This document shows positions 3,156-52,841 of a DNA stretch of 58,673 bases, piece after piece (the stretch's first letter is position 1; the number at the start of each line of letters is the position of its first letter). Made by a program: the position numbers and the translations under genes. The DNA is from Hydrurus foetidus (taxonomy: Eukaryota), in assembly GCA_900617105.1 (NCBI GenBank), contig UYFQ01000033.1, forward strand, positions 1 to 58,673, in the 5' to 3' direction. A model generated the notes under the pieces. It was not told the origin of the DNA and searched no databases. It saw nothing but the letters and a program-made list of their open reading frames with translations.

Positions 3156-3201
3156 CCTGCCTCACTAACCCCGTCTCATCAAATTATTTGTACTCTAATA
3201 G

Positions 3202-7878: not shown

Positions 7879-10800
7879 GTGTATCAGGGACTTTTAGTTC
7901 GCTTTAATCAAGTTCTGAGGAACATTGAGTCGTACTTTTCTGACTGTGAGTCCGATCTAAGTATATTCCGTAGAACGGTCGCACCAGCAACTGGGCAAAT
8001 AAGTTTATATTTTAGCAGTGAATGCGAACAGTTTGGAATGGATCAATCTGTCTATAAAGGTCTAACGGAGTATAGCAAAAAGTATAGAAGCAACTTTCAG
8101 AGTCTTATGAGCGCTGGGAATTTCTTTTTCGAGGGTCGAGCAGACTACAAAACGAAGCTTCTTGTTTTTACGATATCAAATGGGACTGGTAGAAAGGCTT
8201 CACATGTGCCAGAGGAATGGATAAGGCCAGTTGTTGAGGTGGAGGATGTAGGTCAAAAGAGAAAGTTGAAAAGGGGTGAGAGGGGTCCTGGCAAAAAAGA
8301 TTACGGGTCGTCTAAGACAGTAAACCAGAGTGTTAGACAAATCTTTGAGAAGCTTAATACATTTTTGGGTGAAGGGATGGTAGATTTTAGCCAATCTAAA
8401 AAACATCAAATAATTAACGGTGTGATAAATAAGATAAAAAACTATTATAAGATTGACGATAGTAGCGAAGTAAATAACGAAACAAATGTAAGCATAGTGA
8501 ACTCTTTAAAAAATTACTTTACGGGTCTTCGCGAATATGGGGGGAAATTTACTCTTGTAGAGAGCACAATCGAGAGTATCCTCACTGCAGTATTAGATAA
8601 CAATTCAAACAATGTGGAATTAGCGAAATTACTTAATGTATCAAGAAGAAGAATTATGTGTGGAAAATTGAAGAGAAAAATATTCGATGGAATAATTGAA
8701 AATGAAAAAAACAAAAAAATAAATGATTACCCATTAGAAGCAGTAGAGTCATCAGATGAATCGATTATTGACGAGTTATCTACTGACTTAGAGGAATATT
8801 ATTCAAATATTAAAGATTCAGATGAAAGTGGTTGGGGTGGAAGTAGTGATGAAAATGCTGAAGCCTCTAACAATGATATAGACTCGGAGGAGGTTACTGA
8901 ATCTATTAAGAAGTGTAGAAAAAACATATTCTTCACAGTGTTGTCCCCGAAGGGGAGAAAAATTATAAATCGGATCTTAGCGTTGTACGTGATTTCTGTC
9001 ATGACGTCTGTAGACTCGAAACTTTCGCTTCAGCAAAAGTTTACGTTCACAATTATGATGGAACATACTCTTACCATCAGGTCCATATAAAAAGTCAGTC
9101 TATAAAATGTTACTATGACATATTCCTAAAATCGCCAGAGTATCATAATTGGCAAAAAGAGAATGTAAGAACTAAGAAGAAGGGTAGTAGTATTATCACG
9201 ATTGTTCCGGCAATAAAATTAAGGATATTCACGAATGCCTTCTGTCCATGCTGTATGAATCAAAAGCAACGTGACTGTGCCAATCATGTTCAAATTAATT
9301 ACTATAATGCACTAAAAGCCATTGCGAACCTTAGAAGATATCAAGGTATATCAAATGCGATAAAGAGCTGCCTATGTCACGGTCATCAGAATGAACATTA
9401 TTTAAAATGTCACATATCCCTAAGTAGCTTTATGGACGCAGTGCTTTGCAAAAAAACAGAATATCCTATTCTATCCGCGGTATCCAACTCCACTGTGAGT
9501 ATTCAAAAACAAGAAGAAATGAATATTTTAATATCCCACACAAAGCAAGAGAAAGAATCAAATGAAAAGAATGTGAAAGAGAATAGAAATATAAAAAGAG
9601 AACGAATCGCACGACAGCCTAAAAGCATTCCACTATTATCATGGGGACCGTTATTTACTTGTTACTCTAAACAATGTGCATATCAGCAATGTACAGAATG
9701 CGGTATAGACAAGTTTTTCAGTGATTCAAATATGTGTGATATTGAGAGGAATAAAGATGTTGAGGTGATAGTTCGAAAGTATGAAAATGTACAAGGGAGA
9801 TCACGTGGAATGCAGTATGAAATTGTTGAAGTCAAAATGAATGGAGATGAAGTTGTTGAACATTTAATACACTGTGCGAAGTTAGCTATACCTCATGAAT
9901 GGAATGTGAAGTGGAATGCACATGCGAGGAATGTGTGTGTAAATACTTCAACATCAGAAGTACTTACCCTCATGACCGATTTTTCTGCCGTGCTAGACCA
10001 TGATGTGCAGGACAGGCTCAACACTGCTGTGCCGTGTAGATCCAATCAATGCATATTCCTGGCGACCCACAGTCCAAGACACATTCAACTGAAGAATGGA
10101 GTAATGAAAAGGATACAGGAGAACGATGTTTGGCATATTTGGTCAGCACAAGGAGGTGTGATTGAAGCCAATAGTTATTATCACAGTGTGTCCACAAGAC
10201 ATATTGTGAATGAATATAGACATCTCAATATAAACAGAATTAACATATTCACGGATGGGTGCGCCGAGCAATACAAAAGCAGAAGGAATGCATATTTTGT
10301 TGCTGCGCTAGCTGAAGACTATGACATTGTGGTTACACACAATTACGCACCCACAGCATCATTCAAGACTATGGTGGACGGCCAAGGTAATGTTACGAAA
10401 GCTTTCTATCGGAAGTTGGAGAGAAGTGAGGAGGAGGGAACTCGTTATCCTACGTCATATGATCTCTTCAAGCTATTTACCTCACGGTACAACTTGGCTC
10501 CTGAAGCTGTGGAAGATCAACAGAGAAATCCCATGACGATAACAAGGCGATACCATCGCTTCGTAGTAGACAAATCGGATGCGACGCCTGAAATGATAGA
10601 AAGATCGAAGTCAGAAAAAGACGTCATAATAACGGACTACATAGGAGAAAGGTGGGATGCACCTCCAGTGAAGGGAATCAAGGGAATATTCAATCTATTG
10701 GCATACAAAGAAGAAGGTGAAATCAAACTCTTCAGTAGGCAACATTCCTGTTTCTGTATAAGCTGTATCGGAAATGACTTCAAGAGATGTGAATTTCGCA

Positions 10801-11354
10801 CAATATCTGGAGAATTACGGCAGGAACAAGTCAAAAAGTTACCTTTCAAAGAAAACGCACCGCCGAAAAATCACTCATCTGATGACATCAAGAAGGTCAA
10901 TTTCTTCAAAGGTACATTGCCACCAAGCAGTGAAGCCAATATAATAATTGCTATCCCCTGCGACAAGAAAGATTCAAGCGATGAGCCGTTTGTATTAGGA
11001 TTGATGACAAAAAACATTACAGAATTGCAACGAGATCTTGAATCTGAGTATTCTATAAATGGTGTAAGGTTGAAATCGACAATTAAAAAAGGTACATGGT
11101 GTATAACATTGAAGCTTATGTACTGCCAGAATGTAAACGAGAACGAGTTCTATATACCCATTAAGTCAAAAGAAATTAAGGTACCAATACAAGATGTATA
11201 CTATCCAGTAGACGATTCTGAGTGTACACGTGAAAACTATCTGTTATGTTGTGCACAAACAAAAATTCTTAGGGGTACTCAGGTATCGAATGTATACACT
11301 ATAGATAACGACTGTTTACATGTATTGCGAAAGTCAATGACAGACGAGCACTAG
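7879..11354 (+). CDS. Sola2-like transposase, copy 2; ORFs 7879-9090 and 9255-11354 are one gene with a -1 frameshift near 8958-8966
   Basis: The frame of the 699-aa ORF is open upstream (YKSDLSVVRDFCHDVCRL...) and overlaps the end of the 403-aa ORF. True start unresolved: possible splice acceptor at 7841-7842. Confidence 0.7.
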
Positions 11355-11767
11355 ATGATGCAACTTACTTTGACTAAACTTGTCACGATATTGCGCTTTA
11401 AAACAATTTGCGGATGTCAATATTGAGACTAGTCTCGCATCAGCTACTGCAGTCTGATAGTTCAACCAAAAGCTTCTCGATGCGATTACCCAACTTCAAG
11501 CGCACACTCCACGAATATGCCACTCATTCCAGACGCTTTTTGATGCTAGCACATTCTGCAACCCAGATGCTATTAGATTTGATCTCAGTTTTGTGTCATT
11601 TATTTGATGAAATTTGATCACACTTCACACTTTCGTCTCGTAATTTAGTTCTCAGTTATCAAATCGGCCAGAAGGACAGAGCAACCCTCATCCCCGTTTT
11701 CGTTATGCTGTACATTCGAACGTGTTCGAGGTGTCAAGCGCACTTGGATGCATCCACTTTTATTGGA

Positions 11768-12139
11768 TCCTAATTTAGAACGGTGGTGATGATGAAATCA
11801 GTGAGAAATTGCTCTGGATGATGCGTTCATTGAAAGCTACCAGGCTAGTCATTGATGGATGACATATTAGTATCTATCGTAATTTGCTTGAAAGTCATCA
11901 GTAGCTGTCATGGATAATGAGTTCTAATCGAAAGCAACTTCCAATTCTTGGTCGATCTCGGGATATTGACAACTTTTGAACCAAGGAGCGCATTTCGATA
12001 AAGATAAACGCAACCATCAGACTCACCATAGTCAAGTTAGTCGAGTCGAGCAGGAGCAACTTCAACGGTGGAACTTTTATGATCGGTATATTTGTGAGAG
12101 ATGACACTGTCGATTGATCGATATATGCTGTGATGTTTC
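11768..12139 (-). repeat. Right TIR of Sola2-like element, inner part (interrupted by Copia-A)
   Basis: 372-bp reverse complement of 7473-7844; continues after the Copia at 25219-25262. Confidence 0.9.
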
Positions 12140-12461
12140 TGTTGAATATATCTGAGTATATGACACGTACACAATCGGTGTACTTACGTTATTTAGCGTA
12201 CTGCAGTACGCTTTTTTGAGTAAGTACGCATACGTGCGGGGGATGGATGAGCGAGCTCGGGATTCACAAGCTGCAACCGTAGAGTAGTATATGATCGTAT
12301 GCATTGTTTGAACTCGTGGTCTTTCGACTGATGAAGCACAGTCTAATTAACAAGTGATTACTGATACGTTAGATCTTATTTCACGAGCCTTGAGCACTTC
12401 GAACTTACGCCGCTGTACTTCAGTACTTTCGCTGGCGTCAAGACCTCGGATTCTTTCAACA
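12140..12461 (+). repeat. Copia-A 5' LTR
   Basis: Direct repeat of 24892-25213, one substitution seen; TGTTGAA...TTCAACA terminal inverted repeat. Confidence 0.95.
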
Positions 12462-12470
12462 TAATTAGAC
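12462..12470 (+). promoter_or_regulatory. Copia-A non-canonical primer-binding site TAATTAGAC
   Basis: Directly abuts the 5' LTR; reverse complement of GTCTAATTA at 12341-12349 inside the LTR; no TGG. Confidence 0.7.
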
Positions 12471-12486
12471 AGAGTCGGCAATTCAA

Positions 12487-14071
12487 ATGCCTCCAAAACG
12501 TGTTCCTGAAGCCGTAAAAAGCAATGAAGAATGCATACTGCTTTACGGAAAGCACAACAACGTCATAAAGTGGAAAGAGCACATGCAGACGATCATAACC
12601 GAATTGTACGGTATCATCGGTATGTTCTTCACCACGAACCAAAGATATGAACTTCCAAGAGTGTCATACAGGGATTACCCAGTTGACTCATCTTCGGAAA
12701 GTGAAAGCTCCGAGTCCGAGGTGGAGGAAGAGGGAGTTGAAGCACCGGCCTTATCAGCCGAAATGATCGCTACAATCGCAGCCGCGAAAGCGGTACGAGC
12801 AACAGCGAGAGGTGTGAGGAATGATCGAAAACGGAAGATTGCCGAGAGGGCAAGAGCGAAGTTTCGAGAGGACGATTACATCCAGAGGAAAAAAGACCTC
12901 AAAGCGCAAAAGGAGCACGAACGTACGGTATATCCCATGATGTGGAAGCGTATGTCTCCAGCGTCGCAGAGTAGAGTGAGAGAGGAGGAGGATTTCGAGC
13001 AAGCATACATGACGCTGGATTGCGTGCTGCTCTGGTCACTTATACGTAAAACGCATCTCACCCACATCTTCGGGGACTCAGACCCGATGAATGACGTGAA
13101 CATGCACGAACAGGAGAACAAGTACAACTCGCTTAGACAGGGCGAGCGCGAGTACATATCAAACTTCAAAGTGAGATTTGACGAGCAAGTGTCAGCAAAT
13201 GACGGAGTGGGAGTCACACCAATATCGGAGTCTCGAAGAGCACTTGACTTCATCATGAAGCTCGACCCTAGACGGTACAAGAAGATGCACGACGAGATGA
13301 AGAACGATGCACTTCGATGCGTTCCTGATGCCTACCCCAAGACACTGGCGGGTGCTTACCGCGTTGCATCGCAGTGGACTGGCAGTGACCACAGCCCGCA
13401 CGCCGGTGCAGCCGCGAAACCAGCGGCTTTCGTCACAGAGGGTGCACTAGTCGCGACCGAAGACTCCGAGAAGGTGTCGGGTAAAACAGGGGGTGGTAGG
13501 AAGAAAACTCCTCTAAACGAAGTTACCTGTCATGTGTGTGGACACACTGGGCACTACGCGAGAAATTGCAGTAAGCGCAAATCATCTACTGATAAAGCTC
13601 ATGTGACTACAACCGATGCGGACGATGTTGACTCGGATGGGTACGATGTAGCACTCATCACTACAGTGGAATCATGCATGTTCTCGCAATACGACGTGTT
13701 ATTGGACAATGAAGCATCGTTGAACATTTTCAGTAACGGAGATTTACTTACAGGATTAAGGAAGTCAGATAAAACTATCAATGTGGGTGGAATTCAACTC
13801 GGGAAAGGGGTGACTGTCAATATGGAGGGTGACTTCGGGGAGCTTGGACGAGTATTCTACAGTGCAGCAGCATCAGCCAACGTCCTGTCATTCGCTTCTC
13901 AAGTCGACTCTGGAGCGGCTGTGAGATACGACCACGCTGGCGATTGTTTTACACTACAACCACGGAACAGCTCGAGTGTCCACTGCTTCAGTAGGAAGGA
14001 CATACCCGGCAGCGAAGGCCGATTCTACAGCTGTGATTGGCGAGAAGTGATAAAGGAATCAGCAATGGTAG
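12487..14071 (+). CDS. gag: Copia-A gag-protease (5' part of single gag-pol ORF)
   Basis: Zinc knuckle CHVCGHTGHYARNC and protease-like LLDNEA. Joins in frame to 21571 once the Gypsy and one TSD copy are removed (ESAMV|ATVENN). Confidence 0.9.
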
Positions 14072-14288
14072 TATGGCCTAACTCTGGGCTCAGCGGTGGG
14101 TCTGATGGAACGGGGCGCGTGGGCAAGGGGAAGGCAGCTGGTGTGCTGGTGCTATTGCTAAAGAGATGTGGTTAGCTTACAGATAAACACAGCGATAGGC
14201 AAGTCATGAATCGGATGGCTCGGATCGTCCCCGATCCGAACCGAACGTACGCCTGTACCCGTACAGCTGTACAGCTGTGCGGGTCACA
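14072..14288 (-). repeat. Gypsy 3' LTR
   Basis: Direct repeat of 21350-21566 with 2 substitutions seen; sense termini TG...TA. Confidence 0.93.
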
Positions 14289-14292
14289 ATGG

Positions 14293-14303
14293 CCCCTCTC
14301 TTT
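14293..14303 (-). promoter_or_regulatory. Gypsy polypurine tract AAAGAGAGGGG
   Basis: Purine run 4 nt before the 3' LTR on the element sense strand. Confidence 0.8.
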
Positions 14304-14503
14304 GGAAGAAAAGGTGTACTAAATTTTTCATTAACAAACTTATCTATGTCTAAATACTAACATAAAACTACTATCTCAGACTGAAAACATAAAGTTCGTA
14401 CTGAGTAAACCTCCCTAAAATCTGTTAGGATGAAAATTGGGAGTAATCTTTATGATTTAGTGTTTTTTTTTTGTAAACCTTTGTGTTTTATACTGTGTAT
14501 CGG

Positions 14504-17500
14504 TTAACGATAATTTGCAGCAAATTTACTTGGAATCAAGTGTTTAAGGTTTTTAGCAATTAAGAACTCGTGGACTTTTTCAGCGTCACGCATGTTTTTC
14601 CACGGTTCCCAAGTGTTTCTGTCGTGGGGATAGTTTAGCCATTTGACGTGAAACTTTAATGTTCCCACCACTCGGATGTTCCCTTCCATTGCTAGGATAT
14701 CTTCGATAAAGAATTCGAGATAATCTCGTCGGGCGATATCGGTTGGGTTGACCTTTGTAGGGTCAAACTCAAATTGTTTAATATTTGATACATGGTATCT
14801 TTTCTCGCGGTTGGTAATAAGATCGAGTAGTGTATACTCGTCGAGATCGTTTGCGACCACTTGCATGGGACCTTTCCATAAAGTGTGCATGCGTGTTGGT
14901 TTTGATGTGCGGTGGGTAACCAGTACCAACGAGTCGATTTCGAACGTTGTGTAGTCGGTGGAACCGCCTGCTTTTCGTTTCTCGTCCGCTTCTTTGAGTA
15001 GTTCAGCAGTGATTCTGATGAGTTCATCTTGCATCTGCATTATTTTCTCAGTAGAATGGGTGACATGAGCCATGTCTAAGTTTATCTCATCTCGAGGGAG
15101 AAGGATGTTGGCATCAAGGTCAATAGCATTGCCGTATATAAGCTTTGCTGCTGTTGACTGTGTCCGTACGTTGAATGTCGTATTTATAATTCGTTGTACG
15201 AATGGTAAAATTTCTCGGTAGTTTTCCGTAGTTGCACGGTCAAATGTAAATGCCGTGATGTGTCGGTTAATTTCCTTATTCATACGCTCTACTATCGAGT
15301 TTTCTTGCGAAGAGTATGGTAGAATAAGGTTGTGTGTTGTACCGGCAACTTTTACAAATTCCTCGAGGATTTTGTTTACGAAATGGGAACCGTTATCGGA
15401 TCGCAGGAATTTGGGAGCTCCGTAGCGACCGATGTGTTCTATTAGGCCTGTTACGGCTGATTTTGCAGTATTATCAGTTGTGGCTGATAGTTCGACAAAC
15501 CTTGTGAAGGTGTCTACCATAACAAGGATGTATCCTTTATCCGGGAATGGACCAATAAAGTCTATGTTTATGCATTCCATAGGTGCATATGTTGATGTTG
15601 TGAAACGATGGGTGACGGGTTTTGTTTGTCAGCAGACATCTTTTGGCAGCACGGGCATTGTTTAATGTATGCTCTTATATCGTGTCTCATGCCTTCCCAT
15701 ACTTTCCCTATTTTTTTAGGTTTCGCAAAGTGCGATTGAATCCTCCGTGCCCAACGGTAGAGTTGTGGACACGCATTAAGTATGCATATATTTCCGCTGC
15801 AAGCGGTTTGCAAGTTAGGATTGCTGTTATGATGTGTTTCGGCATCTTGTTTTTACATAGGCGTGACATTGCGTCAGCGACTTCATTATTTTTCCCAGGG
15901 ATATACCCTATCGTAAAATCTAATTCCTGTAGCGCACAGCGCCATCTTCCGACCATCTCATTTTTATCCTTGTGCAGGAAAGTAAGATTTTTGTGATCGG
16001 TCAGGATAGTAAACTTACGATCTCGTAGCAGGGCGTCGAGATAGTCACAGCAAAAGTAAAGGGCGTAAGCCTCTTTTTGTATTACGGACCATCTCAACTG
16101 GGTCTTGGTAAGAGATTTGCTTACGAGAGCGACGAGTTGTTTACTCCGTCGACTTCTTGATATAAATAACCACCTATACCGTAGTCAGACGCATCTGTCA
16201 TGAGGGTAATAGGTGCTACATCGTCGATGAAATATAATAAGGGACTCTTGGAGATAAGATCTTTGACTAACGTAAACGCGTCGGCCGCTTCGTCTGTCCA
16301 GACAAGCAATGTTTGCTTTTGGCGGCGTGATCTATCATTTTGTGTAGCGGTGCTACCACATTTGAGTGATTTGGTACATGATCCCTAAAGTAATTGGTGA
16401 GACCGAGGAACGAACGTAGTTCAGTTGTCTTTCTTGGCATCGGAAAGTCAGTCACACCCGTTATCTTTTTGGAGCTCATTGATATACCTTCCTTAGATAT
16501 TTGTCTACCAACATATTCAACTACTTTGACGTTAAGTCTTAGCTTTGCAGCCTTGAGTGAAATGTTTTTATCTTCTAGACGTTGAAACAATGTTTCTAAA
16601 CGTTCACAGAATTGGATGTGTCCATCAGCATATATGATGATGTCGTCTAAATAGACTTCACAGATGCTGTATATCAGGCCAAGTAGTACTATTGACGCCA
16701 TCATCTGTTGAAAGTATGATGGGGCCATCTTGGGACCGAATGGTAGTCGTGTGAATTGGTATATACCCATAAATGTTATAAATGCGGTAAATACTTGTGC
16801 CGCCAGTGTTATTGGGGCTTGGTGGTATCCGGCCGTAAGGTCGATTACGCCGAATACGTTTGGCCGTTGCGCGCCAAGTCTGTATAACATTTGTTTTATA
16901 TTTGGGATCGGCCAACTTGCAGATTCGGTTGCCTCATTGAGGTTCCTGTAATCTATGCAGAATCGGAGTGAACCGTCTGGTTTATTTGCAAGTATTACTT
17001 GGGAGTAATATGAGGCATCTGATGGTTTTATTATTCCCTTTTTGAGCATTGCTACGATTTGTTTCCTGATTTCCTCTTGTCGCATCGTTGAAGCGACTCT
17101 GGGAGCACCCCGATTACGGAAGTGTTTCCATTGAGGTATGTTTACCTTTTTGAAATCGAAAGGGGGAATTCGAGCGGGTTCTGGACCCAGCTCGTTTTTG
17201 AAAAGCGATTTGTGTTTTATGCAAATCGCTTTAATTTCGGCAATCTCAGTTGGTGTACCATCGATATGTATTAAATCAATTAAGTACATCGAATCGTTGT
17301 TTTGATTGTCTTGAAAAGGAGCGAAGGTATCCTTCGACTTGTAGTCGATCCCTTCCTTATCACGGAAAGACCGAACCTCAGGGAGGTCTTCGTCTTCCTC
17401 CCTAAGTAGAGCTGCCGCAATACCACGCGTTTCGGTTGGTGTTATGGATGAGGGTGTAAGAGTAGCTACTCTCTTACGCCTTTTGGTTTTTACACCAGAT

Positions 17501-20500
17501 CCATTCTGACGCGGAAGTGGCAACACTAGTGTTGTCAAATTGGTGGTGCGTAGTATGGACTCATCGGAAGCAAGCTGAGCAACTGCCGTCGCTGAGCTTG
17601 TAGAACACCCGCATGAAGAGTTGCAAGTCTTGTGTGTACAAGCACCTCGAGCTACCAGGTTATCCTGCCGGGGAAAGTCTGTAGTCGAGGGATTTATGCC
17701 CTCCATGACAAAAATGCCAGGAGGTAATGGGGACCCTGGGTCAGCTATTTTACTTTCCTTTTGGACAGTGTCCTTTTCCGTTAGTAACGGTAAAGGAATT
17801 TCCGTTTGGATTGTGTCTGCTGACGCTGTTTTGGCTGATATTACCTCGGGGGGTAGTTCGGTGTCTATGAGTACCGTGTGTGGTACTTGTGCATCGTCCT
17901 CAGCCGAGAACGACACCCTTTGTTTTTTTAGCGGTGAAGCTGGTATCGCACTAGGCGTTATTTTATCGAGGTTCTGGAAGAACTCTGGTATTATTTTTAC
18001 CAAATTTAAATTTTTTATAGTCTGTAATCCTAAGATTAGGTCGACTTTTGACTCCGGAGCTACTCGGACAGGAAGACTAAAAGAGTGTTTTAAATCGTCT
18101 TTATTAAATGATACAACAATATCAAGCACATTTGTAGATTCTACACATTGATTATTTAAGCCACTACACATCCACATGGGTGAGTCGGATTTCCTCAAGT
18201 GAGTTTCGCCACGGAGGCCCCGAAGGACTCTACCGTTGATGACGTCCCCGACTTGACATCCAGTGTCGATTTGGGCTAGGGCTTCCATGCCTCTAGTTTG
18301 GGACGTATTGGTTGGAGGAGGAGGAAGACGAGGAAGATTTGTGTCTGTCCCCCTCCTTGCTCTCCGCCTGGTGCGAGTTGTCCCTGCGATCGTCAGGTCG
18401 GTCGCGACTTGGTTTGAAATTTGCGATCGGATCTGTGGTAGAGATATGTGAACTTGTAAGAAATCATCTATGTTTTCAGTTAGTACAGCTGATAGAAGTT
18501 GTTTCATTGACGGTAATTCTCGAGCGTACTCGATTATGTCCGTACTTGGGTTAGCAAGTTGTGACTTACTTTTTCCCTTGTAGTTGGAGCTCAACTTGTT
18601 CGTGTTAGAACGATCGTTGTCCCTATCCGGTTGAGTCTGGTTGCTCTTGTACTTGTTGTACTTGGTGTTGTTGTTGGTGGCCAGCTTTTGTTTCTTGGTC
18701 GGACGGTCGTCTTGGGCTCTCCCTGGAGGAGAGAAGTCGTTCTCCACATCGTCAGATGGGTACACGTAGGTAGCTGCCCCGGGGTTGTTGGTGTCCCGGG
18801 TAAGTTCCCCGTTGATGTACACATTTGGTACGAAGAATTCGTGACCAATCCGTTTGAAGTCCTTTGCCTCCTCAGACTGCGACCAAGTGCGATGACTACG
18901 GTTGCAGTGAGGGTTCATGTGGTTTTGGCATTCGTAACGGTTGTGTCCCTTTTTGCCACAGGTGTGACAGAAGTTGGTCGCCCGGCTGAGGCCGGACGAC
19001 TCAGGGTCCACCTGACGTTTTGGGATTGCCTTGTAGGCGTTAGCCGAGTGGCTGTCACGGTGAGGTGCGACCTCAGCGTCGTCTTGGTCTGTTGGCGTGA
19101 GCTTTGACTCGAAGACGAAGTCGAGACCTCCCATGTCCTCCGCGTCTTTGATCATCTGGCGTGCTTCGCCCAGCATGACGACAAGACGCGTGAGCATTTT
19201 GAAGATGGTATCTTTCCCGGTCTTTTTCGTCTTACGTTTTGTCTTTGCCATGAAATTGTCTGTAAACTTGTTGTTCTTTGGCAGCTTCTTGTAGAAGGCC
19301 TTACAGATATCATTTTGCATGTCGGCATCGATATTGTCGTATGACGTCCAGAATCCGAGTAGGATGTCGCGGAACTCAGAGAGAGCTCTGTCTTCAACAG
19401 AAGGATCTTTCCAGCTGATGCGGAATTTGCAATTCTTCAGTTTCATTTCGAAGTCGAAATGGGAAGACGTACGTTTGTTTTTGTAAAAGATCTTTTTAAG
19501 ATCATTTGCAATGTTCTTTAACGTTAACGTTTTGCCTTCGACCGTTGGCCAGGCGAGACAAGTCTTGGTGTTGTAACCTGTCTCGCTTTTGCATCGAAGC
19601 AACTGGTCGCGGATCGTTTGGATGGCATCCATTTCGATTAGCATTTCCCAACTGGTTAACATACCGGGGCGGTATGCTTGTTCGTAAAACGCTCTTGCTG
19701 CTTTATCAGCGTCGTCGAGAAGTTTTTCTCGAGTGAGGTAGTACGCCTCCTTCATGTTGATGATGGAGGTTTGCAAACCCGCTTTGCGTTGTGGAGGGGA
19801 ATCCTCTTCCGAGTTTTCCGCCTTTTGCGCGCGGTGTGTTTTACCGGATTTGGCATCGGCTTTGGTTTTCACCTTTTTGTCCTTTGGGGCGGGTTTGGGA
19901 CCCGCCTTTGGGGACTTTTTCTTGGCGAGGGGTTTTATCTTAAGGGACTTCTTGTCCTTGGGCTTAGACTTTTCGGGTTCGACCTCCTCGTCGTCTTCGA
20001 CTTCGACTTCAGCTTTCGCCTCATCGTCGTCGCTGTTGTCGTTCCCGTCGTCGTCCCCGTCACCCTCTCCGTCGTCCCCGTCGCCACTACTTGCGTCGGA
20101 CTCGTCGGAGGAGCTGTCGGGGTTGCCACCATCGCCTCCCGTGTCGTTAACGTCGTCGACGTTACTGTCGTTGTCGTCGTCGGACTCGTCGGGGGTTTGT
20201 CGTCGTCGTTGTTGTTGGCATTGTCGTCACCGTCGGCGTCAGCCTCCGGATCTGACTCGGCGTCGGCCTCGGCCTTGCCGGTGTCGGATGCCTTTGTTGT
20301 TGTGACTTTGGCGTCGACTGATGGTTCGAACAGATCGTCCTCTGCACCGATTTGTTGCAGTCGCGGAGGGAGTATCGAGGTTTCTCCCCCTCTTTTTAAG
20401 TACCCGCGGGTATCGAGGGGAGAGTCTGTCTCGCCCTCGGCTTCCTCGGGTGCCAACCCGAGGAGCTCGTCGTTTGAGGGTTCTAAAGCGTCGGCAGCAG

Positions 20501-20801
20501 CTTGTGCAGCAGCTATTTGTGCTTGCTCTAGCTTGTGAGCTGCTTGCATTTCTTTTGTTGCCGCTAAGACGCTTTGGAAGAAAATTTGTTCGTCCTCAAG
20601 ACGAGTTGGGGTAGCCGAAACATGTATTGCTTCTTTGGCCAGAGCCTGTATCGATTTCTCGATGTTTTGCTTTACAAGGGCCTGCTCCGCTTTGTGCTTC
20701 TCCTTCTCAGTGAGAGGAGCACTGCGCGAAGCGCTTGGAGCTGAAGAAGCAGAGGCGGCTGCGTTAGCAGCCGCTTTCTTCTTTATTTGGGCCCTTGTCA
20801 T
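14504..20801 (-). pseudogene. pol: Gypsy gag-pol polyprotein broken by five apparent single-base frameshifts
   Basis: Acidic N-terminal gag, CHTCGKKGHNRYEC knuckle, protease IDTG, RT YLDD, RNase H TDASDYGIGG, integrase H-H-C-C and D-D-E, WKGP motif, chromodomain (FHVKWLNYPHDRNTWEP), spread over six ORF-track fragments. Confidence 0.9.
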
Positions 20802-21349
20802 GGGACTTTTGTCTTGAGTTTAAACGTCTTGATCTTGGGGTCTTGGACAGCGACGGAACTCGGACGCGGCTCTCTATGGAGCTGAGGATGTATCCCGCAG
20901 CTATGATGTCGTGGGATCGTAGGATCCTTTAAACTGATGGAGCTGTTGGTGGTTTACTTTCGCGCGATTTCGTCGGAAATCGCTCGAAAAGTTGCCTGGC
21001 GGTTTGAACCTCTCAAGGAGCTAAACTGCGGGCGTTTTGGCCAGCTTTCGTTTCTCTAACGATGGGACTTGCTTTTGCTCGACTCAGAGCTACTTGCTTC
21101 GTTAGGCTTCGAGTTTTGAAGCCGTCACGATTTTGTCGCGAAAATATCGACGACTCGAGCTTTTTAACTAAAGCGTTTCAGAGGCTGTCGGTTAGACGTA
21201 GCCTTTGTAGTGTCTTTCGACGTTGTTTTCACTTGTTGCCAAGTTACTAGCTTGTTTGCACGCCGTTTTACGGGTCGTGGCGATGTTTTTGGGAAGCGTT
21301 TTGGAACTGGTCTCTAAAAAGAGCACCAAGTTGGTCCAAATACTAGTAT

Positions 21350-21566
21350 TATGGCCTAACTCTGGGCTCAGCGGTGGGTCTGATGGAACGGGGCGCGTGG
21401 GCAAGGGGAAGGCAGCTGGTGTGCTGGTGCTATTGCTAAAGAGATGTGGTTAGCTTACAGATAAACACAGCGATAAGCAAGTCATGAATCGGATGGCTCG
21501 GATCGTCCCCGATCCGAACCGAACGTACGCCTATACCCGTACAGCTGTACAGCTGTGCGGGTCACA
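21350..21566 (-). repeat. Gypsy 5' LTR
   Basis: Direct repeat of 14072-14288. Confidence 0.93.
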
Positions 21567-21570
21567 GTAG

Positions 21571-24500
21571 CGACAGTGGAGAATAACGCAAAGGCATTTA
21601 CCAAACGTGAGATTGAACAGGCGCGTAAGGCACGAGAGCTGTTGGCTCGTATGGGCTTCCCCACAGTTGGGCATGCGATCGCGATTCTCAACTCTGGAAG
21701 CAACTTCGAAGTTACCGCTCGCGATTTCCAAATTGCTGACGCAATCTGGGGAGCAGATATTGCCTCGCTGAAAGGAAAGACGACCAAGAAAGCGACACCG
21801 GTAGCTGACATCACAGTCAACGCAAAGATTGTCCAACAGGATCAAGTGCTCGCGATAGATATCATGTTCGTCGATAAAACCTCAACGCTCATCGGGATAG
21901 CAACTCCGCTGGGGCTGACAATCGCATACAGCCTTAACAACCTCGATATGAATAAAGCTTCGAGAGCGGCTGGCAACATCAAAAAAGGGATCGACCACTT
22001 CGTCACGACGCTGGCGTCGCAGAACTTCAAGACGAAAATGATTATGAGCGACGGAGAGAGAGGAGTAACAAGCTTAATCCCCCAGCTTGAAGCGATGGGC
22101 ATCGAAGTAGACATCAGCGGTGCTGGAGGGCACGTTGCCAGAGTTGAAAGGAGAATCCGAGTTATTAAGGAACGACTTCGTTCCCACGTCGCGTATCATC
22201 TGCCATTTACTCTGTCGAGTATGGGGATAGCGATGTGTATTCTGTATTGTGTATCCCGGCTAAATTACGAGCCATACGGAGTACGAGAATGGGGCCCAAG
22301 TCCAAGGGAGGCTTTCATCGGACGTAAGGTGGATGGAAAGAAGGATTTCAGGTGTTCCTTCGGTGACTATGCCCAGTGCACTGTGCCCACCACCGACAGT
22401 ACTATGAAGGGGAGGACTGAGGATTGCGTCGTAATGCTTCCACTGGGAAACCGCACCGGAACTGTGCGTATGTTATCACTCACAACGGGGCGATTTGTGA
22501 ATAGAGACCAGTTTCAAATACTGCCAATGCCGCTATCAGTTATTCAGAGGATGAACGATCTCGCTCTGAAAGACGGAAGAGTAAAAGGGAAGGGAGAGCT
22601 AGCTCAAAAGCCAACTACATACAACATGCAGAGTGATGTGGGGAGCAGTCTACCGGACATCATGGAGTCCGTAACGAACAATGGAATCGACCCATCGGTA
22701 ATTCTAGAGAACGACGAGGTCACTCCGGAATTAGCGAACAACGAGGAGGTTGGCAGGGAACCTGAAGGGAATAGGGGTGTAGACGACATCACTCCTGAAG
22801 GCGAACATGATGGGAATGGGGGTGCGGATGATGTAGAAATGCAGATCAATGACACTGACTACGCCGACGATGCAATCCCAATATTCATTCCACAAGGGAA
22901 ACCTAAGGAAGTCAACATGGATGACCTGATACACAGTTTCGGAGGGCTAGGTTCGGGGAAGTATGACGACGAAACCATCGGGGGTATAGGTGACGAAGAC
23001 GACGCAACAACGGGAGCGGCGGTGGGCGGGAACGACACGGGCGCACTGCTTGATGTATCGAGTGAAACTGAAGATACACAGCATGTCGAACAATTGCATC
23101 GACGCCGTTTGGACATTATGGAGTTATTTCGCAAGGGAGTGAACGGTGGAGCGCTGCTGACCAGACTATACATCGAGCCAGGAGAGGACTGGGGTGAGCA
23201 TGTCTTTAACATCTCAGTAAAAGAGGCGCTACGTACTCGTGGGAAAGATGCCGAGAGAGTTATCGAAAAGGAACTCGGGCAAATGATAACGAAGAAAGTG
23301 TGGACTCCTGTCGACATTAAGTCACTACCATATGAGGAGAAGAGAAGGATCATCAGGTCCAGTATGTTTCTGAAAGAGAAATTTCTTGCGAGTGGGGAGT
23401 TTGAGAAACTCAAAGCTCGACTTGTAGCCGGCGGGGATCAGCAAGACAAGTCACTCTATGACGATCTCTCCGCGCCAACAGTCGGAACGAGCTCAGTGTT
23501 TACGATACTCAGCATCGCAGCGCATGAGAGAAGGGGTGTAGCGGTCATAGACATCGGAGGAGCATTCTTGCATGCGGATATGAGCAAAGGGATACCTGTG
23601 CACATGCGTCTAGACAAGAATATGTCGGAAATAATGACGAAGCTAGCGCCAGAGTATGAGCAATACGCCGATGCGAGAGGATGCGTGGTGGTGAAGTTAG
23701 ATAAGGCGCTATATGGATGCGTAGAGTCGGCTGCACTCTGGTATGAGAACTTGCGAGTGAGTTTCTCAGATTTGGGATACACACCGAACCCATATGACAT
23801 CTGCGTCTTCAACAGACGCAACGAGCAAGGCGTGCAATGCACGGTGGCAATACACGTTGACGACTTGTTGATCACAAGCGCGTGCACACTTATGATCGAG
23901 GACCTGGCGGCAGGTTTAGTAAAGAGATATGGAGAAATTACAAGAAAGAACGGGCCTGTTGTTAACTACTTAGGCATGGTGTTTGATCTCACAACCCTAG
24001 GGGAAGCCAGGGTGACCATGACGGGGTTTGTGGATGAAATGCTGAAGGAAAGTGGCATCATCGGGAAAGCCCGCACACCAGCAACGGAGGGTCTATTTGA
24101 TGTGAGACTCGATGTTGAGACGGTGACTGAGCAGCAGAGAGTGACCTTCCACAGATGCGTGGCGAAGCTGCTGTACCTGGCCAAGAGGGCACGACCTGAT
24201 TGCCTTACTGCCGTGTCTTTCCTGGCGACGAGGGTAAATAAGTGTACCACAGATGACCTCATCAAACTGCAGCGACTGTTGCGATATGTGTATGATACGA
24301 AGGAGAGAGGTGTTGTGTTTTCGCCCGGAGGGTCTGGAATTGAAGTGAGCGTGCTGATTGACGCCGCATATGGAGTACACCCTGACGGGAAATCCCACAC
24401 AGGAAGCTGTGTTATTATCGGGGACGTAGGGGCAGTGCACTGCAAGTCAGCAAAACAACAGATCGTGACGAAGTCTAGTACTGAAGCAGAGCTGGTAGCG

Positions 24501-24830
24501 CTTTCTGATTCGGCGAATCAGTCTCTACACATCAGGAATTTCGTGCTGGCACAGGGGCACTCATGCGGACCTGTCACCATCTACCAGGACAACATGTCCT
24601 GTATGGCCCTGATAGATCGAGGGAGATCGACAGCGGAGCGTACGAGACACATAGCCATCAGATACTTCTGGGTGAAGGAGCGTGTGGACACAGGGGAAGC
24701 GAGGGTGCAGCATCTAGGGACAAAGAAGATGTATGCAAACCTACTGACCAAGCCGCTCCAGGGAGCGCAATTTCAAGAAGAGAGAAAAGGGATCACGGGA
24801 TGGAGCGATGCAGTAGTGATACAGACGTAG
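21571..24830 (+). CDS. pol: Copia-A integrase, reverse transcriptase and RNase H (3' part of gag-pol)
   Basis: IN (IDIMFV, SDGE, VERRIR), RT (KARLVAGG, DIGGAFL, LDKALYG, HVDD), RNase H (DAAYG, SSTEAE, YQDN, ANLLTKPL). Confidence 0.95.
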
Positions 24831-24881
24831 AAATAAAGTCATCAACATGCATAACTCCGTCAGTACCGATTGAGTAAGTGC

Positions 24882-24891
24882 CATAGGGGTG
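24882..24891 (+). promoter_or_regulatory. Copia-A PPT-position motif CATAGGGGTG
   Basis: Abuts the 3' LTR; an identical 10-mer is at the same position in Copia-B. Confidence 0.75.
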
Positions 24892-25213
24892 TGTTGAATA
24901 TATCTGAGTATATGACACGTACACAATCGGTGTACTTACGTTATTTAGCGTACTGCAGTACGCTTTTTTGAGTAAGTACGCATACGTGCGGGGGATGGAT
25001 GAGCGAGCTCGGGATTCACAAGCTGCAACCGTAGAGTAGTATATGATCGTATGCATTGTTTGAACTCGTGGTCTCTCGACTGATGAAGCACAGTCTAATT
25101 AACAAGTGATTACTGATACGTTAGATCTTATTTCACGAGCCTTGAGCACTTCGAACTTACGCCGCTGTACTTCAGTACTTTCGCTGGCGTCAAGACCTCG
25201 GATTCTTTCAACA
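24892..25213 (+). repeat. Copia-A 3' LTR
   Basis: Direct repeat of 12140-12461. Confidence 0.95.
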
Positions 25214-25218
25214 GTTTC

Positions 25219-29277: not shown

Positions 29278-29312
<35 letters not shown>

Positions 29313-46543: not shown

Positions 46544-46896
46544 TGTTGTGAAATGTGGACTCAGAGGTGTGACGTATGTCCCATACGGTTGGTCACAAGC
46601 TCCCCACTGCACTCTCCGATGCGGCTTCACTCGCTCTGTCTGGAGTCAGAAGAGAAGTTTCACTGTCGGCTACGAGTTTGGGTTAATTAGCACTGCTGCA
46701 ACGCAGTAGTAGTCGAGTGTAGTCAGTAGTTGTCTCAACGGGTTGATGGCTATGCTAGATCAAATACGTCATATCGTATGTAGTACGGTACTGCTGTGGT
46801 GCAACACCGTACGTATGGTTCAAATATGAAATACAGATAATAGCATCACAATTCGTATACGGAATATCTAGTCTACATAATACTGATATTACTACA
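46544..46896 (-). repeat. Copia-B 3' LTR
   Basis: Direct repeat of 52489-52841. Confidence 0.95.
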
Positions 46897-47441: not shown

Positions 47442-50400
47442 TCAGGTGGTGTTGAGTAGTTGGTTGCGGAAAGCTCTGAACTGCTCTCCTTGAAGGGGTT
47501 TCGTTAGCATGTCTGCTAACATCTCGTTGGTTGATTTGTAACTGATGGTAATTTCTTGTTCTTTTATCCGGTCATGTAGGAAGAAATACCGGATATCGAT
47601 ATGCCGCGTACGTTCGCTGTTGGAGCGACCGTTGTTAATAAGTTGGATGGTGGATTTGTTATCTTGGAATATGATGGCGCTCCTATCTTTATATCCTTGA
47701 TTTATGAGGAATAGTCTGGTCCATAGCACTTGGTTGGCTGAGTCGCTAAGTCCTACTAGCTCGGCTTCGGTACTTGACTTCGTGGTTAGCTTTTGAGTTG
47801 AACTCTTAGCATACACTACACCTTTCCCTAATGTGATGGCGCTTCCTGTGTGACTCTTCATGTCGTGATGTACTCCGTAGGAAGCATCGACATAGCATGT
47901 AACAGTGGTGGGGTCCTCTATCTGTAGTGTGAGGCCAAGGTCTCTAGTGTGGCGTACGTACTGTATGGTACGTTCCAGCTTTTTCAAGTCGTCCACTTGT
48001 GGTTTCGTCACCCGCTTCGTCAGGAACGCTACCGGCGTCAGAATATCCGGCCTCGCTCTTTTGCTTAAGTACAGCAGTTTTGCTGTAATTGAATGAAAGA
48101 ACTCACGAGCAGAAGTGGTTAGTAGTGAGTTAGAGGTATCCGGTTTAACCGTAAATAAATCCGGCTTGGCCGGTGTCGGTGCCACCCCTAAAATCTCTTT
48201 GCAGTCTTCTAGCAGCTCTTTGATAAATCCTTCCATAGTTATCTTCACTTGTCCCGCTGTCTCGAAATTAAAAGTCATACCTATGTAATTAAGTACTTTT
48301 CCTCGATGTTTCGTTAGTCCGGGATATAGTTTTTCAATTTCATAAATTACCATATCAACATATTTGTCATTGCAACACGATATCATCATGTCATCAACGT
48401 GGATGATCAATGTGGTTTGTGATTTATTATTTTCAGTTCGATTAAACACGCACATGTCATAAGCATTAGCAGTATACCCTAATACGGACAAGTCATGTGA
48501 AATTTTATCATACCACAGTTTTGCAGATTCAACACATCCATACAACGCTTTTTTCAATTTAACAATGCATGTACCCTTTTCATTAACATATTTCAAATAT
48601 GATTTATCAATGGATGTCAAAACACCAGTCAAATATTTATTCAATCTCATAAATACAGTGTGACTACCCTCAAGTGGCATATCGCTATTTAAAAATGCTC
48701 CTGGAAAATCTATCGTAGCTAATGATCTATTCTCTTTCGCAGCAATTGAAGCAATTATAAACACACTAGTGGTGCTAACTGTAGGTGATGAGCCATTATC
48801 GTAAATATCTCTATCCTGTAAATGACCTCCTGCAACTAATCTCGATTTTAACTTATCGAATTTACCTTCTGCAGTATACTTATCTTTTAAAAACATACTA
48901 CTGGTTATGATGTTGTTACGTTGTAATGGTGTTAGTGAGTTGATCAACACTCCTTCCCACACATCTTTCTCGCACATCTGTTGCATTTCTTTTCTAATGG
49001 AATCGATAGCTATATCACCTAACTTATCGATACCGTCTTTAACAGTCATGTTAAAAGCATATGAACAATCAAGGCGATGCAACACTTCAGGTATACAGCA
49101 TCCTATGTTCCTATTTCCTCTGTTAGATGCCCATCTACCTGGCTGGTGATTTCTAGCGCTACGTCTCAAAGCAGGCTGTTCTATCTCAGGTAGTTCATCT
49201 GTAAGTACGTCATCTACTGTGTACGTATCTTCTATGGCATCAACAGTTTCATCATATGTAAGTACATTGTCATCAACGTACGTGCTGTTTACATCAGGTG
49301 CATCATATTCCATCGCAACATCGTCATGTTCAATAGGTTCGAATTCAGCATCATTAGTCTCTAGCTGCACTGTATAATCGTCTGTCATAGCATCATTATC
49401 AGGCATATCATTAAAATCATTTTCGTCATTCATCACTGGCACATAAGGCAGTTCAGGCATCACATGTGGTTCAACATCATATGAGTCATCATACATTTCA
49501 TCTGAATGTGGTATGTGTGAATTACTAAATCTTCTCATATTATTATTATAAATTTTCTCATCATCATAATCAAGTCCATCATCATCAATCACACGCCTGT
49601 TCTGTTCGAATACAGGTTGATTAGTGTTATTACCCTTATTAATGTTTCTCTTATCAGATAATCCATTTAGGTAAGTAATAACTTCATCAGGCATTGGTAG
49701 TGATGTGGCTTTAGTGCGTTTAACTATCTGTTCATTACTGAGTAACATGTAATACCAAGATCCTTCTAGATTGCCACTACTCATCAGAGCGATAGCACCT
49801 GAAGTTCTGGCTTTATTACTATTATCAATATTGTCAGAATGCACTTGTACATAGTCACCAAAACCATGTTTCAGTTCTTTATCTACATTTATCTTTCTAC
49901 CGTATAGTTTCTCTCTAGGGCTGACGTAGTCTACGGTATTCCTTGTCGGAACTAACACTATACGGTTAACAACATATCTAACTAACCATCCTTCTAACTT
50001 CTCAGTTAATCTAAATGGTAGTGTGTTGATTACTGCTCTAACTCTCTCTTTAATCTGTCTGATCTTACGCTCAACTACGGTAACTGCCTCACCTGCACCT
50101 GTCGTGTCTAATGCAGTACCTATTGTAGCTAACTTAGTCTCAAACCATACTGAATTGATGGCGCCCTCTCCATCAACTCTGACTAAATTTAAACTGAAAC
50201 CATACTTAGTTATGTGTCTAATATCACTCTCTAAGCTAGTCCAAAGCGTAAGATTGGCTCTGTTATTTAACTTATTTACCATAGTATACTCTAATGGCTT
50301 AACAACGGCAATTAAAAATGGATTGCCGTTAACAAACATAATGTCTATATACATGGTTTGATCTCTCTGTTGTATATTATCTAACAGTGGTTGCTCCTCT

Positions 50401-51188
50401 TCAACCTGTGCCTGATGGCTCGGCGTTTTTCCCTTTAGGGAGCCTAAGTCAGGACCCCAGATATCCAAGGATCTAACTACATCTTGTGATGTTATATTAC
50501 TGTTGACTAGTTTACCCTGTCCTATCAGCTTAATTAATTGTCCTGGACTAGCGTATCCTAATTTCCTCTGATATTCTCTAGCTAACTCAGCTTGTTTTAC
50601 CTGTGTAACTGTGTACTTCTTCATCTTATCTGTCACTGTCGTAACTAACATTAACTTAGGCTTACTTACCATTGTGTCTAAATTACATATATATATATTA
50701 TACTTTTCGTCTCTGTTAAAGTAGTAACAACATCCGCCTCGTTTGATTTGCAAACTATAAAAATCGCTCCCACTACTATACTTCATAGAGTAACTATTAT
50801 TTACCATATTAGCAAAAGACAAGATGTTGGCTATACAATTAGGATCATAGTAGACTGATCCGAAATCCGTCATTCCGCGTTCTCTGATTACCATCGGCTT
50901 TCCTCTACTGTTAACTCCATTAACTACCATAGGTGTATCAGCAGGCACTATGTCATAGAACAGTGTGGCAGTTCTAAAAACAGATTCACCAGCACAAGTG
51001 TCAAGAAGCAATTGATTGTCAGCAAATACATTAGAATCATTCATGATATCTATGCTAAATATATTGCTATCTACTGCTGGGGTCTCCGTCACAGGAGCTT
51101 CGTCATCTATAAATTTGATTTGTACATATTTAGAAATACGTACGTGCTTTACATCATCTTTCACAACACTAGTCACACTGTTATTCAC
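47442..51188 (-). CDS. pol: Copia-B pol (PR-IN-RT-RH), frame open up to the gag stop in the -1 frame
   Basis: LLDTCAG protease, IDIMFV/RVDGE/VERKIR integrase, KSRLVAGG, HVDD RT, DASYG/SSTEAE/FQDN/ADMLTKPL RNase H. Confidence 0.95.
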   Translation of the reverse strand: MNNSVTSVVKDDVKHVRISKYVQIKFIDDEAPVTETPAVDSNIFSIDIMNDSNVFADNQLLLDTCAGESVFRTATLFYDIVPADTPMVVNGVNSRGKPMVIRERGMTDFGSVYYDPNCIANILSFANMVNNSYSMKYSSGSDFYSLQIKRGGCCYYFNRDEKYNIYICNLDTMVSKPKLMLVTTVTDKMKKYTVTQVKQAELAREYQRKLGYASPGQLIKLIGQGKLVNSNITSQDVVRSLDIWGPDLGSLKGKTPSHQAQVEEEQPLLDNIQQRDQTMYIDIMFVNGNPFLIAVVKPLEYTMVNKLNNRANLTLWTSLESDIRHITKYGFSLNLVRVDGEGAINSVWFETKLATIGTALDTTGAGEAVTVVERKIRQIKERVRAVINTLPFRLTEKLEGWLVRYVVNRIVLVPTRNTVDYVSPREKLYGRKINVDKELKHGFGDYVQVHSDNIDNSNKARTSGAIALMSSGNLEGSWYYMLLSNEQIVKRTKATSLPMPDEVITYLNGLSDKRNINKGNNTNQPVFEQNRRVIDDDGLDYDDEKIYNNNMRRFSNSHIPHSDEMYDDSYDVEPHVMPELPYVPVMNDENDFNDMPDNDAMTDDYTVQLETNDAEFEPIEHDDVAMEYDAPDVNSTYVDDNVLTYDETVDAIEDTYTVDDVLTDELPEIEQPALRRSARNHQPGRWASNRGNRNIGCCIPEVLHRLDCSYAFNMTVKDGIDKLGDIAIDSIRKEMQQMCEKDVWEGVLINSLTPLQRNNIITSSMFLKDKYTAEGKFDKLKSRLVAGGHLQDRDIYDNGSSPTVSTTSVFIIASIAAKENRSLATIDFPGAFLNSDMPLEGSHTVFMRLNKYLTGVLTSIDKSYLKYVNEKGTCIVKLKKALYGCVESAKLWYDKISHDLSVLGYTANAYDMCVFNRTENNKSQTTLIIHVDDMMISCCNDKYVDMVIYEIEKLYPGLTKHRGKVLNYIGMTFNFETAGQVKITMEGFIKELLEDCKEILGVAPTPAKPDLFTVKPDTSNSLLTTSAREFFHSITAKLLYLSKRARPDILTPVAFLTKRVTKPQVDDLKKLERTIQYVRHTRDLGLTLQIEDPTTVTCYVDASYGVHHDMKSHTGSAITLGKGVVYAKSSTQKLTTKSSTEAELVGLSDSANQVLWTRLFLINQGYKDRSAIIFQDNKSTIQLINNGRSNSERTRHIDIRYFFLHDRIKEQEITISYKSTNEMLADMLTKPLQGEQFRAFRNQLLNTT

Positions 51189-51229
51189 ATTATTAAATAT
51201 ATCGGCATGTAATGAATCATATAAGCCAC

Positions 51230-52453
51230 TTACTTTCCCTTCCCAGGTGATGCAGTGGGTTTCCCTCCAGGGCTCTTGCCTCCTTCCTCGCCCCAGTATT
51301 GGGCTACAGTCTCTGCTGCCTCTGCTCTACACTCCCTAGCAAGATGCCCGTACTTTCCACAATTGTTGCATGGCCCTCGCTTGTACCCCGCTGGTGGGGA
51401 TTTGTTGGATGTGTAGGCGGCGATAGGAGATCCTTTCTCGCTGCTGCTGCTTCCTTCTAGGTAGTCTGCTCCATCCTTCACCCACTTCGCGTTTGGCGCA
51501 CTTTTTCCCTTGTGCCCTCCGGGGTAGCCTCCTCTGCCGCCCCTGCCTCCTCTGCCTGTCATGGCGAAGGCATTCGCTCTGTCCATAGCTGCTGGCGAGT
51601 TGGACGCTGCTCGCTTCGGATTATATTTGGCTGATTCCTGGTAGGCTACTTCCAGAGACTCTGGCCATGGCTTCAACCCGTTGGTGAAAAAGGACTTGAA
51701 TTCTCCGTAGTTTCCATTGAGTCCCAAGATGAATTTCACGGCCATTTGGCCCTCCGGGTATGTCTCATCAAGTGCTCCACGGCCTGCCATTTCATAGGCT
51801 TGTTGGATGGCCGTGAGAGCTGACTTGGTGTTAGTGTAGTACATACTCAAATTGTCGTGTTGTCCCATGACCAAGTTATTATAACGTTGTGTTATCATGT
51901 ACATTTGGTGCTGTACTCCTAGCGTAGAATCTCCGATGTGAGTGACCAGTATAGCTTGCATAAGCTTCCTTGGTTCGAACTCATTTTCGGCTTCAATACC
52001 GGCCTGCACTTCTGATACTCTCGTCTTCGAGCTCTCGGACATTTGTCCTAGCATAGCTCCATAGAGGTTTCCTTTATCTTCTTCGAGAGTTTTAACATTT
52101 TTGTTGTAATCTACCATTCCTAGTTCCCATATCTTTCTGTCGTAGACGGTTGCTCCATCCTCTGGCTGGTCTGGCAGTACATAAGCTGGATAGTCTCCAA
52201 GAGTTCCGTCAGTACCAAATATCATACTGACTCTTGATTTAAAAGTTGTCATGGCATACTCCTTGAGTTTGGCCATCCACTTGGTAACCGTCCCATGGGC
52301 GATGTCCTTCCCAGGCGGTAGATCCAAGTATGCACCGATCGTGGGGATATTCCCACGATGGTGGTTCGGCGTCGCTGGAGATCCTCTCCCAACGCGACCC
52401 GCAAAATAGCCTCGTCCACGTCCCTGCTGGGGACTTCCACGGCCTTTCATCAT
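51230..52453 (-). CDS. gag: Copia-B gag
   Basis: First ATG at 52453; RGG-rich segments and zinc knuckle CNNCGKYGHLAREC; stop TAA at 51230-51232. Confidence 0.9.
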   Translation of the reverse strand: MMKGRGSPQQGRGRGYFAGRVGRGSPATPNHHRGNIPTIGAYLDLPPGKDIAHGTVTKWMAKLKEYAMTTFKSRVSMIFGTDGTLGDYPAYVLPDQPEDGATVYDRKIWELGMVDYNKNVKTLEEDKGNLYGAMLGQMSESSKTRVSEVQAGIEAENEFEPRKLMQAILVTHIGDSTLGVQHQMYMITQRYNNLVMGQHDNLSMYYTNTKSALTAIQQAYEMAGRGALDETYPEGQMAVKFILGLNGNYGEFKSFFTNGLKPWPESLEVAYQESAKYNPKRAASNSPAAMDRANAFAMTGRGGRGGRGGYPGGHKGKSAPNAKWVKDGADYLEGSSSSEKGSPIAAYTSNKSPPAGYKRGPCNNCGKYGHLARECRAEAAETVAQYWGEEGGKSPGGKPTASPGKGK

Positions 52454-52477: not shown

Positions 52478-52488
52478 AGTGCTAATTA
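52478..52488 (-). promoter_or_regulatory. Copia-B non-canonical primer-binding site TAATTAGCACT
   Basis: Abuts the 5' LTR; perfect 11-nt complement of sense AGTGCTAATTA at 52639-52629 in the LTR. Confidence 0.75.
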
Positions 52489-52841
52489 TGTTGTGAAATG
52501 TGGACTCAGAGGTGTGACGTATGTCCCATACGGTTGGTCACAAGCTCCCCACTGCACTCTCCGATGCGGCTTCACTCGCTCTGTCTGGAGTCAGAAGAGA
52601 AGTTTCACTGTCGGCTACGAGTTTGGGTTAATTAGCACTGCTGCAACGCAGTAGTAGTCGAGTGTAGTCAGTAGTTGTCTCAACGGGTTGATGGCTATGC
52701 TAGATCAAATACGTCATATCGTATGTAGTACGGTACTGCTGTGGTGCAACACCGTACGTATGGTTCAAATATGAAATACAGATAATAGCATCACAATTCG
52801 TATACGGAATATCTAGTCTACATAGTACTGATATTACTACA
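52489..52841 (-). repeat. Copia-B 5' LTR
   Basis: Direct repeat of 46544-46896. Confidence 0.95.

Follow-up and report, generated by a model that had tools for sequence, protein, structure and literature searches.

Organization of the window

The 58,673-nucleotide stretch of DNA analysed here (the window) carries two LTR retrotransposons, Copia-A and Copia-B, on opposite strands (Table 1). Both have the TG...CA LTR pair and the 5-bp TSD that Ty1/Copia requires, the TSD being GTTTC for Copia-A (12135-12139 and 25214-25218) and CAGCG for Copia-B (52842-52846 and 46539-46543). RVT_2 was matched in the two elements with E values of 1e-21 and 3e-19, and the gag-PR-IN-RT-RH order read from motifs, with an RVT_2-type RT, is that of Ty1/Copia. 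Their integrase and RNase H gave no Pfam match and were assigned by their motifs. Comparison with the PDB returned zinc-finger matches only, and Rfam gave 0 matches in the window. Purine tracts of the AGGGGTG type were also found in Copia-B and in many relatives.

Copia-A is interrupted by a chromovirus with 221-bp LTRs, TG...TA ends and a 4-bp TSD (GTAG). In place of a TGG PBS, this nested element has the palindrome AATACTAGTATT, starting from the last base of its 5' LTR, and its own-LTR complement did not exceed 5 nt at the post-LTR offsets tested. A natural uninterrupted copy of Copia-A, P0005, encodes 1614 aa and matches at 99% in the RT region. P0005 is a single ORF; in Copia-B the gag stop and the overlap with pol at 51230-51326 (-) likely correspond to a -1 frameshift.

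Table 1. Coordinates of the retrotransposon features in the window
Feature	Position	Strand	Remarks
Copia-A, whole element	12140-25213	+	nested chromovirus inside
Copia-A 5' LTR, 322 bp, TG...CA	12140..12461	+	321/322 identity with 24892-25213
Predicted Copia-A self-primer	12340..12349	+	starts at the A of CAGT (predicted +1); the other 9 nt pair with the PBS
Copia-A PBS	12462..12472	+	9 nt paired in the window copy; 11 nt with the commoner 12471 allele
Copia-A gag-protease section of the polyprotein	12487..14067	+	weak zinc-knuckle match
Nested chromovirus (Gypsy) LTR element	14068..21566	-	interrupts Copia-A; RVT_1, rve and Chromo domains
Copia-A integrase-RT-RNase H	21567..24830	+	RVT_2, HVDD motif
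Short purine tract AGGGGTG, likely PPT of Copia-A	24885..24891	+	adjoins the 3' LTR
Copia-A 3' LTR	24892..25213	+	holds a second primer-site copy, 25092-25101
Copia-B, whole element	52841-46544	-	5-bp TSD
Copia-B 5' LTR, 353 bp	52489..52841	-	LTR pair and TSD
Predicted Copia-B self-primer	52629..52639	-	11 nt; first base is the A of CAGT
Copia-B PBS, 11 nt	52478..52488	-	directly past the CA of the LTR
Copia-B gag and pol	47442..52453	-	gag 52453-51230; pol 51326-47442, overlapping, other frame
Copia-B 3' LTR	46544..46896	-	LTR pair

Several other features were noted. Two copies of a 3.2-kb stretch (1-3160 and 9045-12204) are 99.8% identical, possibly through a transposon-driven rearrangement or as a feature of the assembly; a 65-bp fragment of the Copia-A LTR (3096-3160) closes the first of them and is followed by a DDE_1 transposase-like ORF (3202-4647). 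An inverted copy of 372 bp lies at 7473-7844. On the plus strand, a stop-free glutamate synthase reading frame of 1393 aa (26236-30417) sits in a segment of 48-55% GC, richer than the surrounding host genes. A gene of the aldehyde dehydrogenase family that neighbours the retrotransposons has named relatives from Epipyxis (63%), Pinguiococcus and Mallomonas, which makes a chrysophyte host likely. A tandem array at 44885-45069 is built of 5-nt units of the GATAA and GACAA types.

The PBS of each Copia element matches its own LTR

The LTR bounds of Copia-A, fixed by the near-identical second copy and the TSD, place its PBS directly after the LTR: the first base of the PBS is the first base past the terminal CA. 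The PBS, TAATTAGAC at 12462-12470, is complementary to GTCTAATTA at 12341-12349, which is directly preceded by CA (12339-12340), and this pair of 9-mers, first reported in the first-pass annotation, was found exactly where it had been placed. Such a complement arose in 5/5000 dinucleotide shuffles of the Copia-A LTR. The match is 11 nt long in Copia-B, and the 11-mer complement was obtained in 0/5000 dinucleotide shuffles of that LTR. Crossed pairings, with the LTR of one element and the PBS of the other, reached 7 nt at most. The distance of about 120 nt given in the first-pass annotation holds for Copia-A, whose LTR site starts 121 nt before the PBS, but not for Copia-B, where the distance is 151 nt. 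By the criterion of Neumann et al. for self-priming (a complement of at least 10 bp and a PBS 0-5 bp from the LTR), Copia-B qualifies with its 11 nt; Copia-A falls below the limit with the 9 nt of the window copy and reaches 11 nt with the commoner allele described below.

Compensatory changes between the two families had also been proposed. Each LTR does match its own PBS, but the shared TAATTA is palindromic and leaves few informative positions. Two elements alone are weak evidence, because 6 of the 9 nt of the Copia-A site are palindromic.

The Copia-A copy of the window is a minority variant

Alleles and depths of Copia-A were taken from the contigs of three sequencing runs (X1, X2 and X3) of one study. 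At position 12471, T and not A holds most of the depth in the contigs of all three runs (2268/2760 in X1), and with T the complement grows to 11 nt (12339-12349). Since most of the contig depth reads T at this position, the window copy is a minority variant with a shorter pairing. The duplex formed by this copy has 9 AU-rich base pairs and is weak (-7.6 kcal/mol); in two longer contexts it had a probability of 0.21 or 0.05, as against 0.85 for the commoner allele.

The predicted primer block has the highest contig depth within the Copia-A LTR in the three runs. In X1, the summed depth was about 52,000-67,000 at 12331-12360 versus 1,000-2,000 at 12421-12456, which suggests, summed contig depth not being copy number, that the primer site is common to subfamilies whose LTRs differ elsewhere. 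A 1-nt deletion at 12344, inside the primer site, accounts for about one quarter of the depth in X1 and X2 and for more in X3. From this deletion, a subfamily whose PBS lacks one base is expected; among the rows listed, no such PBS occurs.

A blind pairing test in relatives

At E values of 1e-30 or better, the two RTs had 1803 and 2260 relatives. A metagenome scan with a query alignment of 28 relatives matched at least 600 stretches, of which 553 were confirmed, and returned 79 loci; no relatives of these Copia elements were found in the viral contigs scanned. The start of gag was set without regard to pairing, by homology or ORF only, in 56 loci, and the exclusion of 12 with less than 380 nt upstream left 44. 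A locus passed when it had an own-LTR complement of at least 9 nt beginning at a CA, TA or CG junction.

The test was passed by 31/44 loci from water metagenomes, or 33/46 counting Copia-A and Copia-B, versus 49/2070 cross-element pairs (2.4%) and 2.7% of shuffles. Complements of at least 10 nt were present in 27/46 own-element and 15/2070 cross-element comparisons. One pass, L008, is an off-site match of equal length, the true junction of this locus also giving 9 nt. The earlier proposal that the match was due neither to chance nor to one fixed tRNA primer is thus strongly supported, through the relatives and not through the comparison of Copia-A with Copia-B.

Among the 13/44 failures, L001, L016, L018, L023, L070 and L075 have a pairing of 9-16 nt at the junction, which the automatic gag start or window had missed. 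The pairing has one mismatch in L057 and L025 and was judged by eye to be partial only in L012 and L020; no verdict could be reached on L010 and L078. In L032 the LTR-PBS complement was looked for and is absent (5 nt), and this locus may be primed differently or have suffered a deletion. Pairings of 9-13 nt were also seen in L002, L003, L035 and L048, four of the loci excluded for their short upstream sequence. Long hairpins lie within the LTR U3 of L032, L020, L010 and L036. In L011 (5415-5469), the complete PBS comes after the second LTR, and the sequence beyond it does not resemble the leader of the element; this would agree either with insertion through homology at the PBS, of the kind reported for Tf1 (PMC11042837), or with a contig that is chimeric.

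Features of 43 self-complementary elements

We assembled a curated set of 43 elements, consisting of the 33 blind passes and 10 rescued loci. The rescues of L010 and L036 were rejected, their matches being hairpins away from the gag-proximal junction, and L075 was removed as a duplicate of L077. The set was chosen for a pairing of at least 9 bp and its members are related, hence not independent.

The covariation of LTR and PBS extends across the lineage: the 43 elements have 43 distinct PBS of 9-25 nt (median 12), each matched by its own LTR. TGG, the start of a PBS for a tRNA 3' end, occurs in the first 6 nt of the PBS in 0/43. The distance from the start of the LTR arm to the PBS (+1 to PBS) ranges from 55 to 234 nt. 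Among 44 aligned sequences the median RT identity is 44%, and the RT motif HVDD is found in 27/44. Even sisters with RTs 83-90% identical have different PBS, each matched by its own LTR only. L063 and L064 (90%) have unrelated PBS of 25 and 19 nt, and cross-pairing is limited to 4-5 nt in this pair as well as in L049/L063 (87%) and L019/L023 (83%).

Three features lie outside the pairing-based selection. First, the LTR arm begins at the A of CA in 22/43 elements (background 5.3%), and YCAYW is present at the arm edge in 19/43 versus 2.4% of the background, giving an initiator-like consensus TCA(Y)(W); the adenine of the Inr is the usual transcription start (PMC3599244). No positional TATA signal was found. 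Second, ATT stands one base from the 3' end of the LTR arm in 29/43, its distance from the 5' end not being fixed. A reading of the AATT motif as the FPR promoter element of oomycetes was rejected, ATT being anchored to the 3' end of the primer and not to +1; FPR is also described as absent from a diatom (PMC3599244). Third, C directly follows the PBS duplex in 19/42 elements where 9.8 are expected, which is only a hint, as related elements are not independent and C is also found in 13/42 at +6. The outer edge of the duplex is extended by a G-U pair in 0/42.

Folding of the leader, from which the first-pass annotation expected an intramolecular duplex, favoured it (probability >0.5) in 39/43 leaders and in 30/41 with 150 nt of added context, but not in the Copia-A copy of the window in long context (0.05-0.21, see above). 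The z score for whole-leader folding was only about -1.75. A crude test (15-nt flanks versus loop, n=42) revealed no Tf1-like helices flanking the duplex in the lineage as a whole (mean z -0.14 and 0.15).

Probable self-priming and its alternatives

The two Copia elements of the window are members of a large Copia lineage in which the match between LTR and PBS is a real, lineage-wide signature, and we consider it most likely, with a probability of roughly 0.8, that it reflects self-priming of the Tf1 kind. Transcription would start at the A of YCA, predicted from the motif at 12340 in Copia-A and at 52639 in Copia-B, and the 5' end of the RNA would fold back onto the PBS and enclose a loop of some 45-225 nt. 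On the model of Tf1, the RNase H of the element would cut past the paired stretch, after ATT(A/G), and the RT would extend the freed 3' OH through U5. Plus-strand synthesis would then recopy the primer into the PBS, so that any mutation of the LTR site would reach the PBS in the following cycle. Copied PBS have been described in about 50% of Tf1 cDNA (PMC11042837). Such copying would explain why the match is of the Watson-Crick type whatever its length, and why the two sites drift jointly and fast. More speculatively, the C just past the PBS could be a copy of the cap G.

This has a consequence for the claim, made from Copia-A and Copia-B, that covariation argues for a selected duplex. The claim does not follow: recopying of the PBS from the primer produces compensatory changes mechanically, so covariation alone is no evidence of selection.

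A primer of the element's own sequence might instead be supplied in trans, as a short capped fragment of a second co-packaged RNA or as an abortive transcript, with no intramolecular loop. This would account equally well for the covariation and for the Inr and ATT edges, and it would suit the missing flanking helices, the very variable loop length (+1 to PBS of 55-234 nt) and the several short duplexes that fold poorly in cis. Most leaders nevertheless favour the cis duplex, and in Tf1, the known precedent, the 5' UTR of the element itself folds (PMC10085805), so we regard priming in trans as unlikely.

We find it quite improbable that the duplex is a selected structural or regulatory element, acting in packaging, dimerisation or translation control, with priming by another route. 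The palindromic AATT core does resemble dimer-initiation sites, and the fungal GalEa elements have a similar palindrome, CTAATTAGT, at the same place and lack an LTR complement according to their description (PMC5445492). The arms, however, begin at the first post-LTR base and at an Inr-like A, the outer edge shows no G-U extension in 42 elements, no other primer site is present, and a downstream hairpin of the GalEa type is found in 0/43.

Priming by a host tRNA, a tRNA half or another small RNA, with an LTR match arising by chance in AT-rich DNA, is highly improbable: the sites are indeed AT-rich and that of Copia-A is palindromic over 6 of 9 nt, but the blind pairing test largely refutes this explanation, and against it also stand 43 distinct PBS of up to 25 nt that match their own LTR and rarely others, the lack of a TGG start and the shuffles (5/5000 for Copia-A, 0/5000 for Copia-B).

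Comparison with known systems

Self-priming is experimentally established for Tf1 (PMC7175516, PMC10085805, PMC4600332, PMC11042837), in which the first 11 nt of the RNA, cut by RNase H, are the primer and the PBS lies beside the 5' LTR (PMC7175516). Like the elements described here, Tf1/Tf2 of S. pombe and the Tf1/sushi group have no tRNA PBS and a PBS by the 5' LTR that is complementary to a site within the LTR. Tf1/sushi elements are Ty3/Gypsy chromoviruses, with a chromodomain and the RT-RH-IN order, whereas the present ones are Copia, with the IN-RT-RH order, RVT_2 and no chromodomain match in the Copia proteins scanned. Here the predicted primer varies from 9 to 25 nt, and a YAAT motif is fixed at the start of the PBS. 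Our crude test (n=42) did not detect the pair of "pretzel" duplexes that flank the PBS in Tf1 (PMC10085805). On the self-priming reading, this is a lineage that works like Tf1 yet stands outside the Tf1/sushi group.

The plant TAR elements (Houba, Osr-1, Fourf) are closer in type, being Copia with the same sequence signature and a 5-bp TSD (PMC6317226). Self-priming was predicted in 89% of 203 of these elements (PMC6317226). The host here is instead likely a chrysophyte and many RTs have HVDD (27/44), the comparison with TAR being by description only. Fungal GalEa, a Copia group with a Conserved Hairpin Site (CHS), also lacks a tRNA PBS and has a TAATTAG-containing palindrome right past the LTR (PMC5445492). 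That palindrome pairs with a downstream arm, the authors of its description having found no LTR complement (PMC5445492), whereas the pairing partner in the present elements lies within the LTR, upstream of the PBS. Diatom CoDi elements, again compared by description only, are likewise Copia of ochrophyte hosts with TG/CA LTR ends (PMC2806351). The main text of that paper has no occurrence of "primer binding", and the supplement, a listing of CoDi structural features, may bear on novelty. Hairpin priming in chromoviruses is only mentioned in the available text of PMC3601003. Our literature search, which covered only a minority of subscription papers, found no report of self-priming in stramenopile Copia.

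The principle is already known, shown in Tf1 and predicted in plant TAR; the present elements extend its range and vary it but do not bring a new mechanism. A further proposal, which we hold tentatively and at less than even odds, is that self-priming originated independently, apart from Tf1/sushi and plant TAR, in a very large ochrophyte Copia lineage with rules of its own. The primer, of no set length (9-25 nt), would extend from the cap as far as an ATT(A/G) terminus that the RNase H of the element recognises with no pretzel structure involved, and each cycle would rewrite the PBS from the primer, including a C templated by the cap.

Annotation tools that require a tRNA PBS will miss or mislabel such elements. 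The 43 natural primer/PBS pairs narrow the requirements to a primer that begins at an Inr, ends in ATT(A/G) and may vary in length, and thereby provide testable rules for how RNase H makes the primer. If the self-priming reading is true, tRNA-independent priming would be the normal mode of a widespread and diverse algal Copia lineage rather than an oddity confined to Gypsy elements of the Tf1 type.
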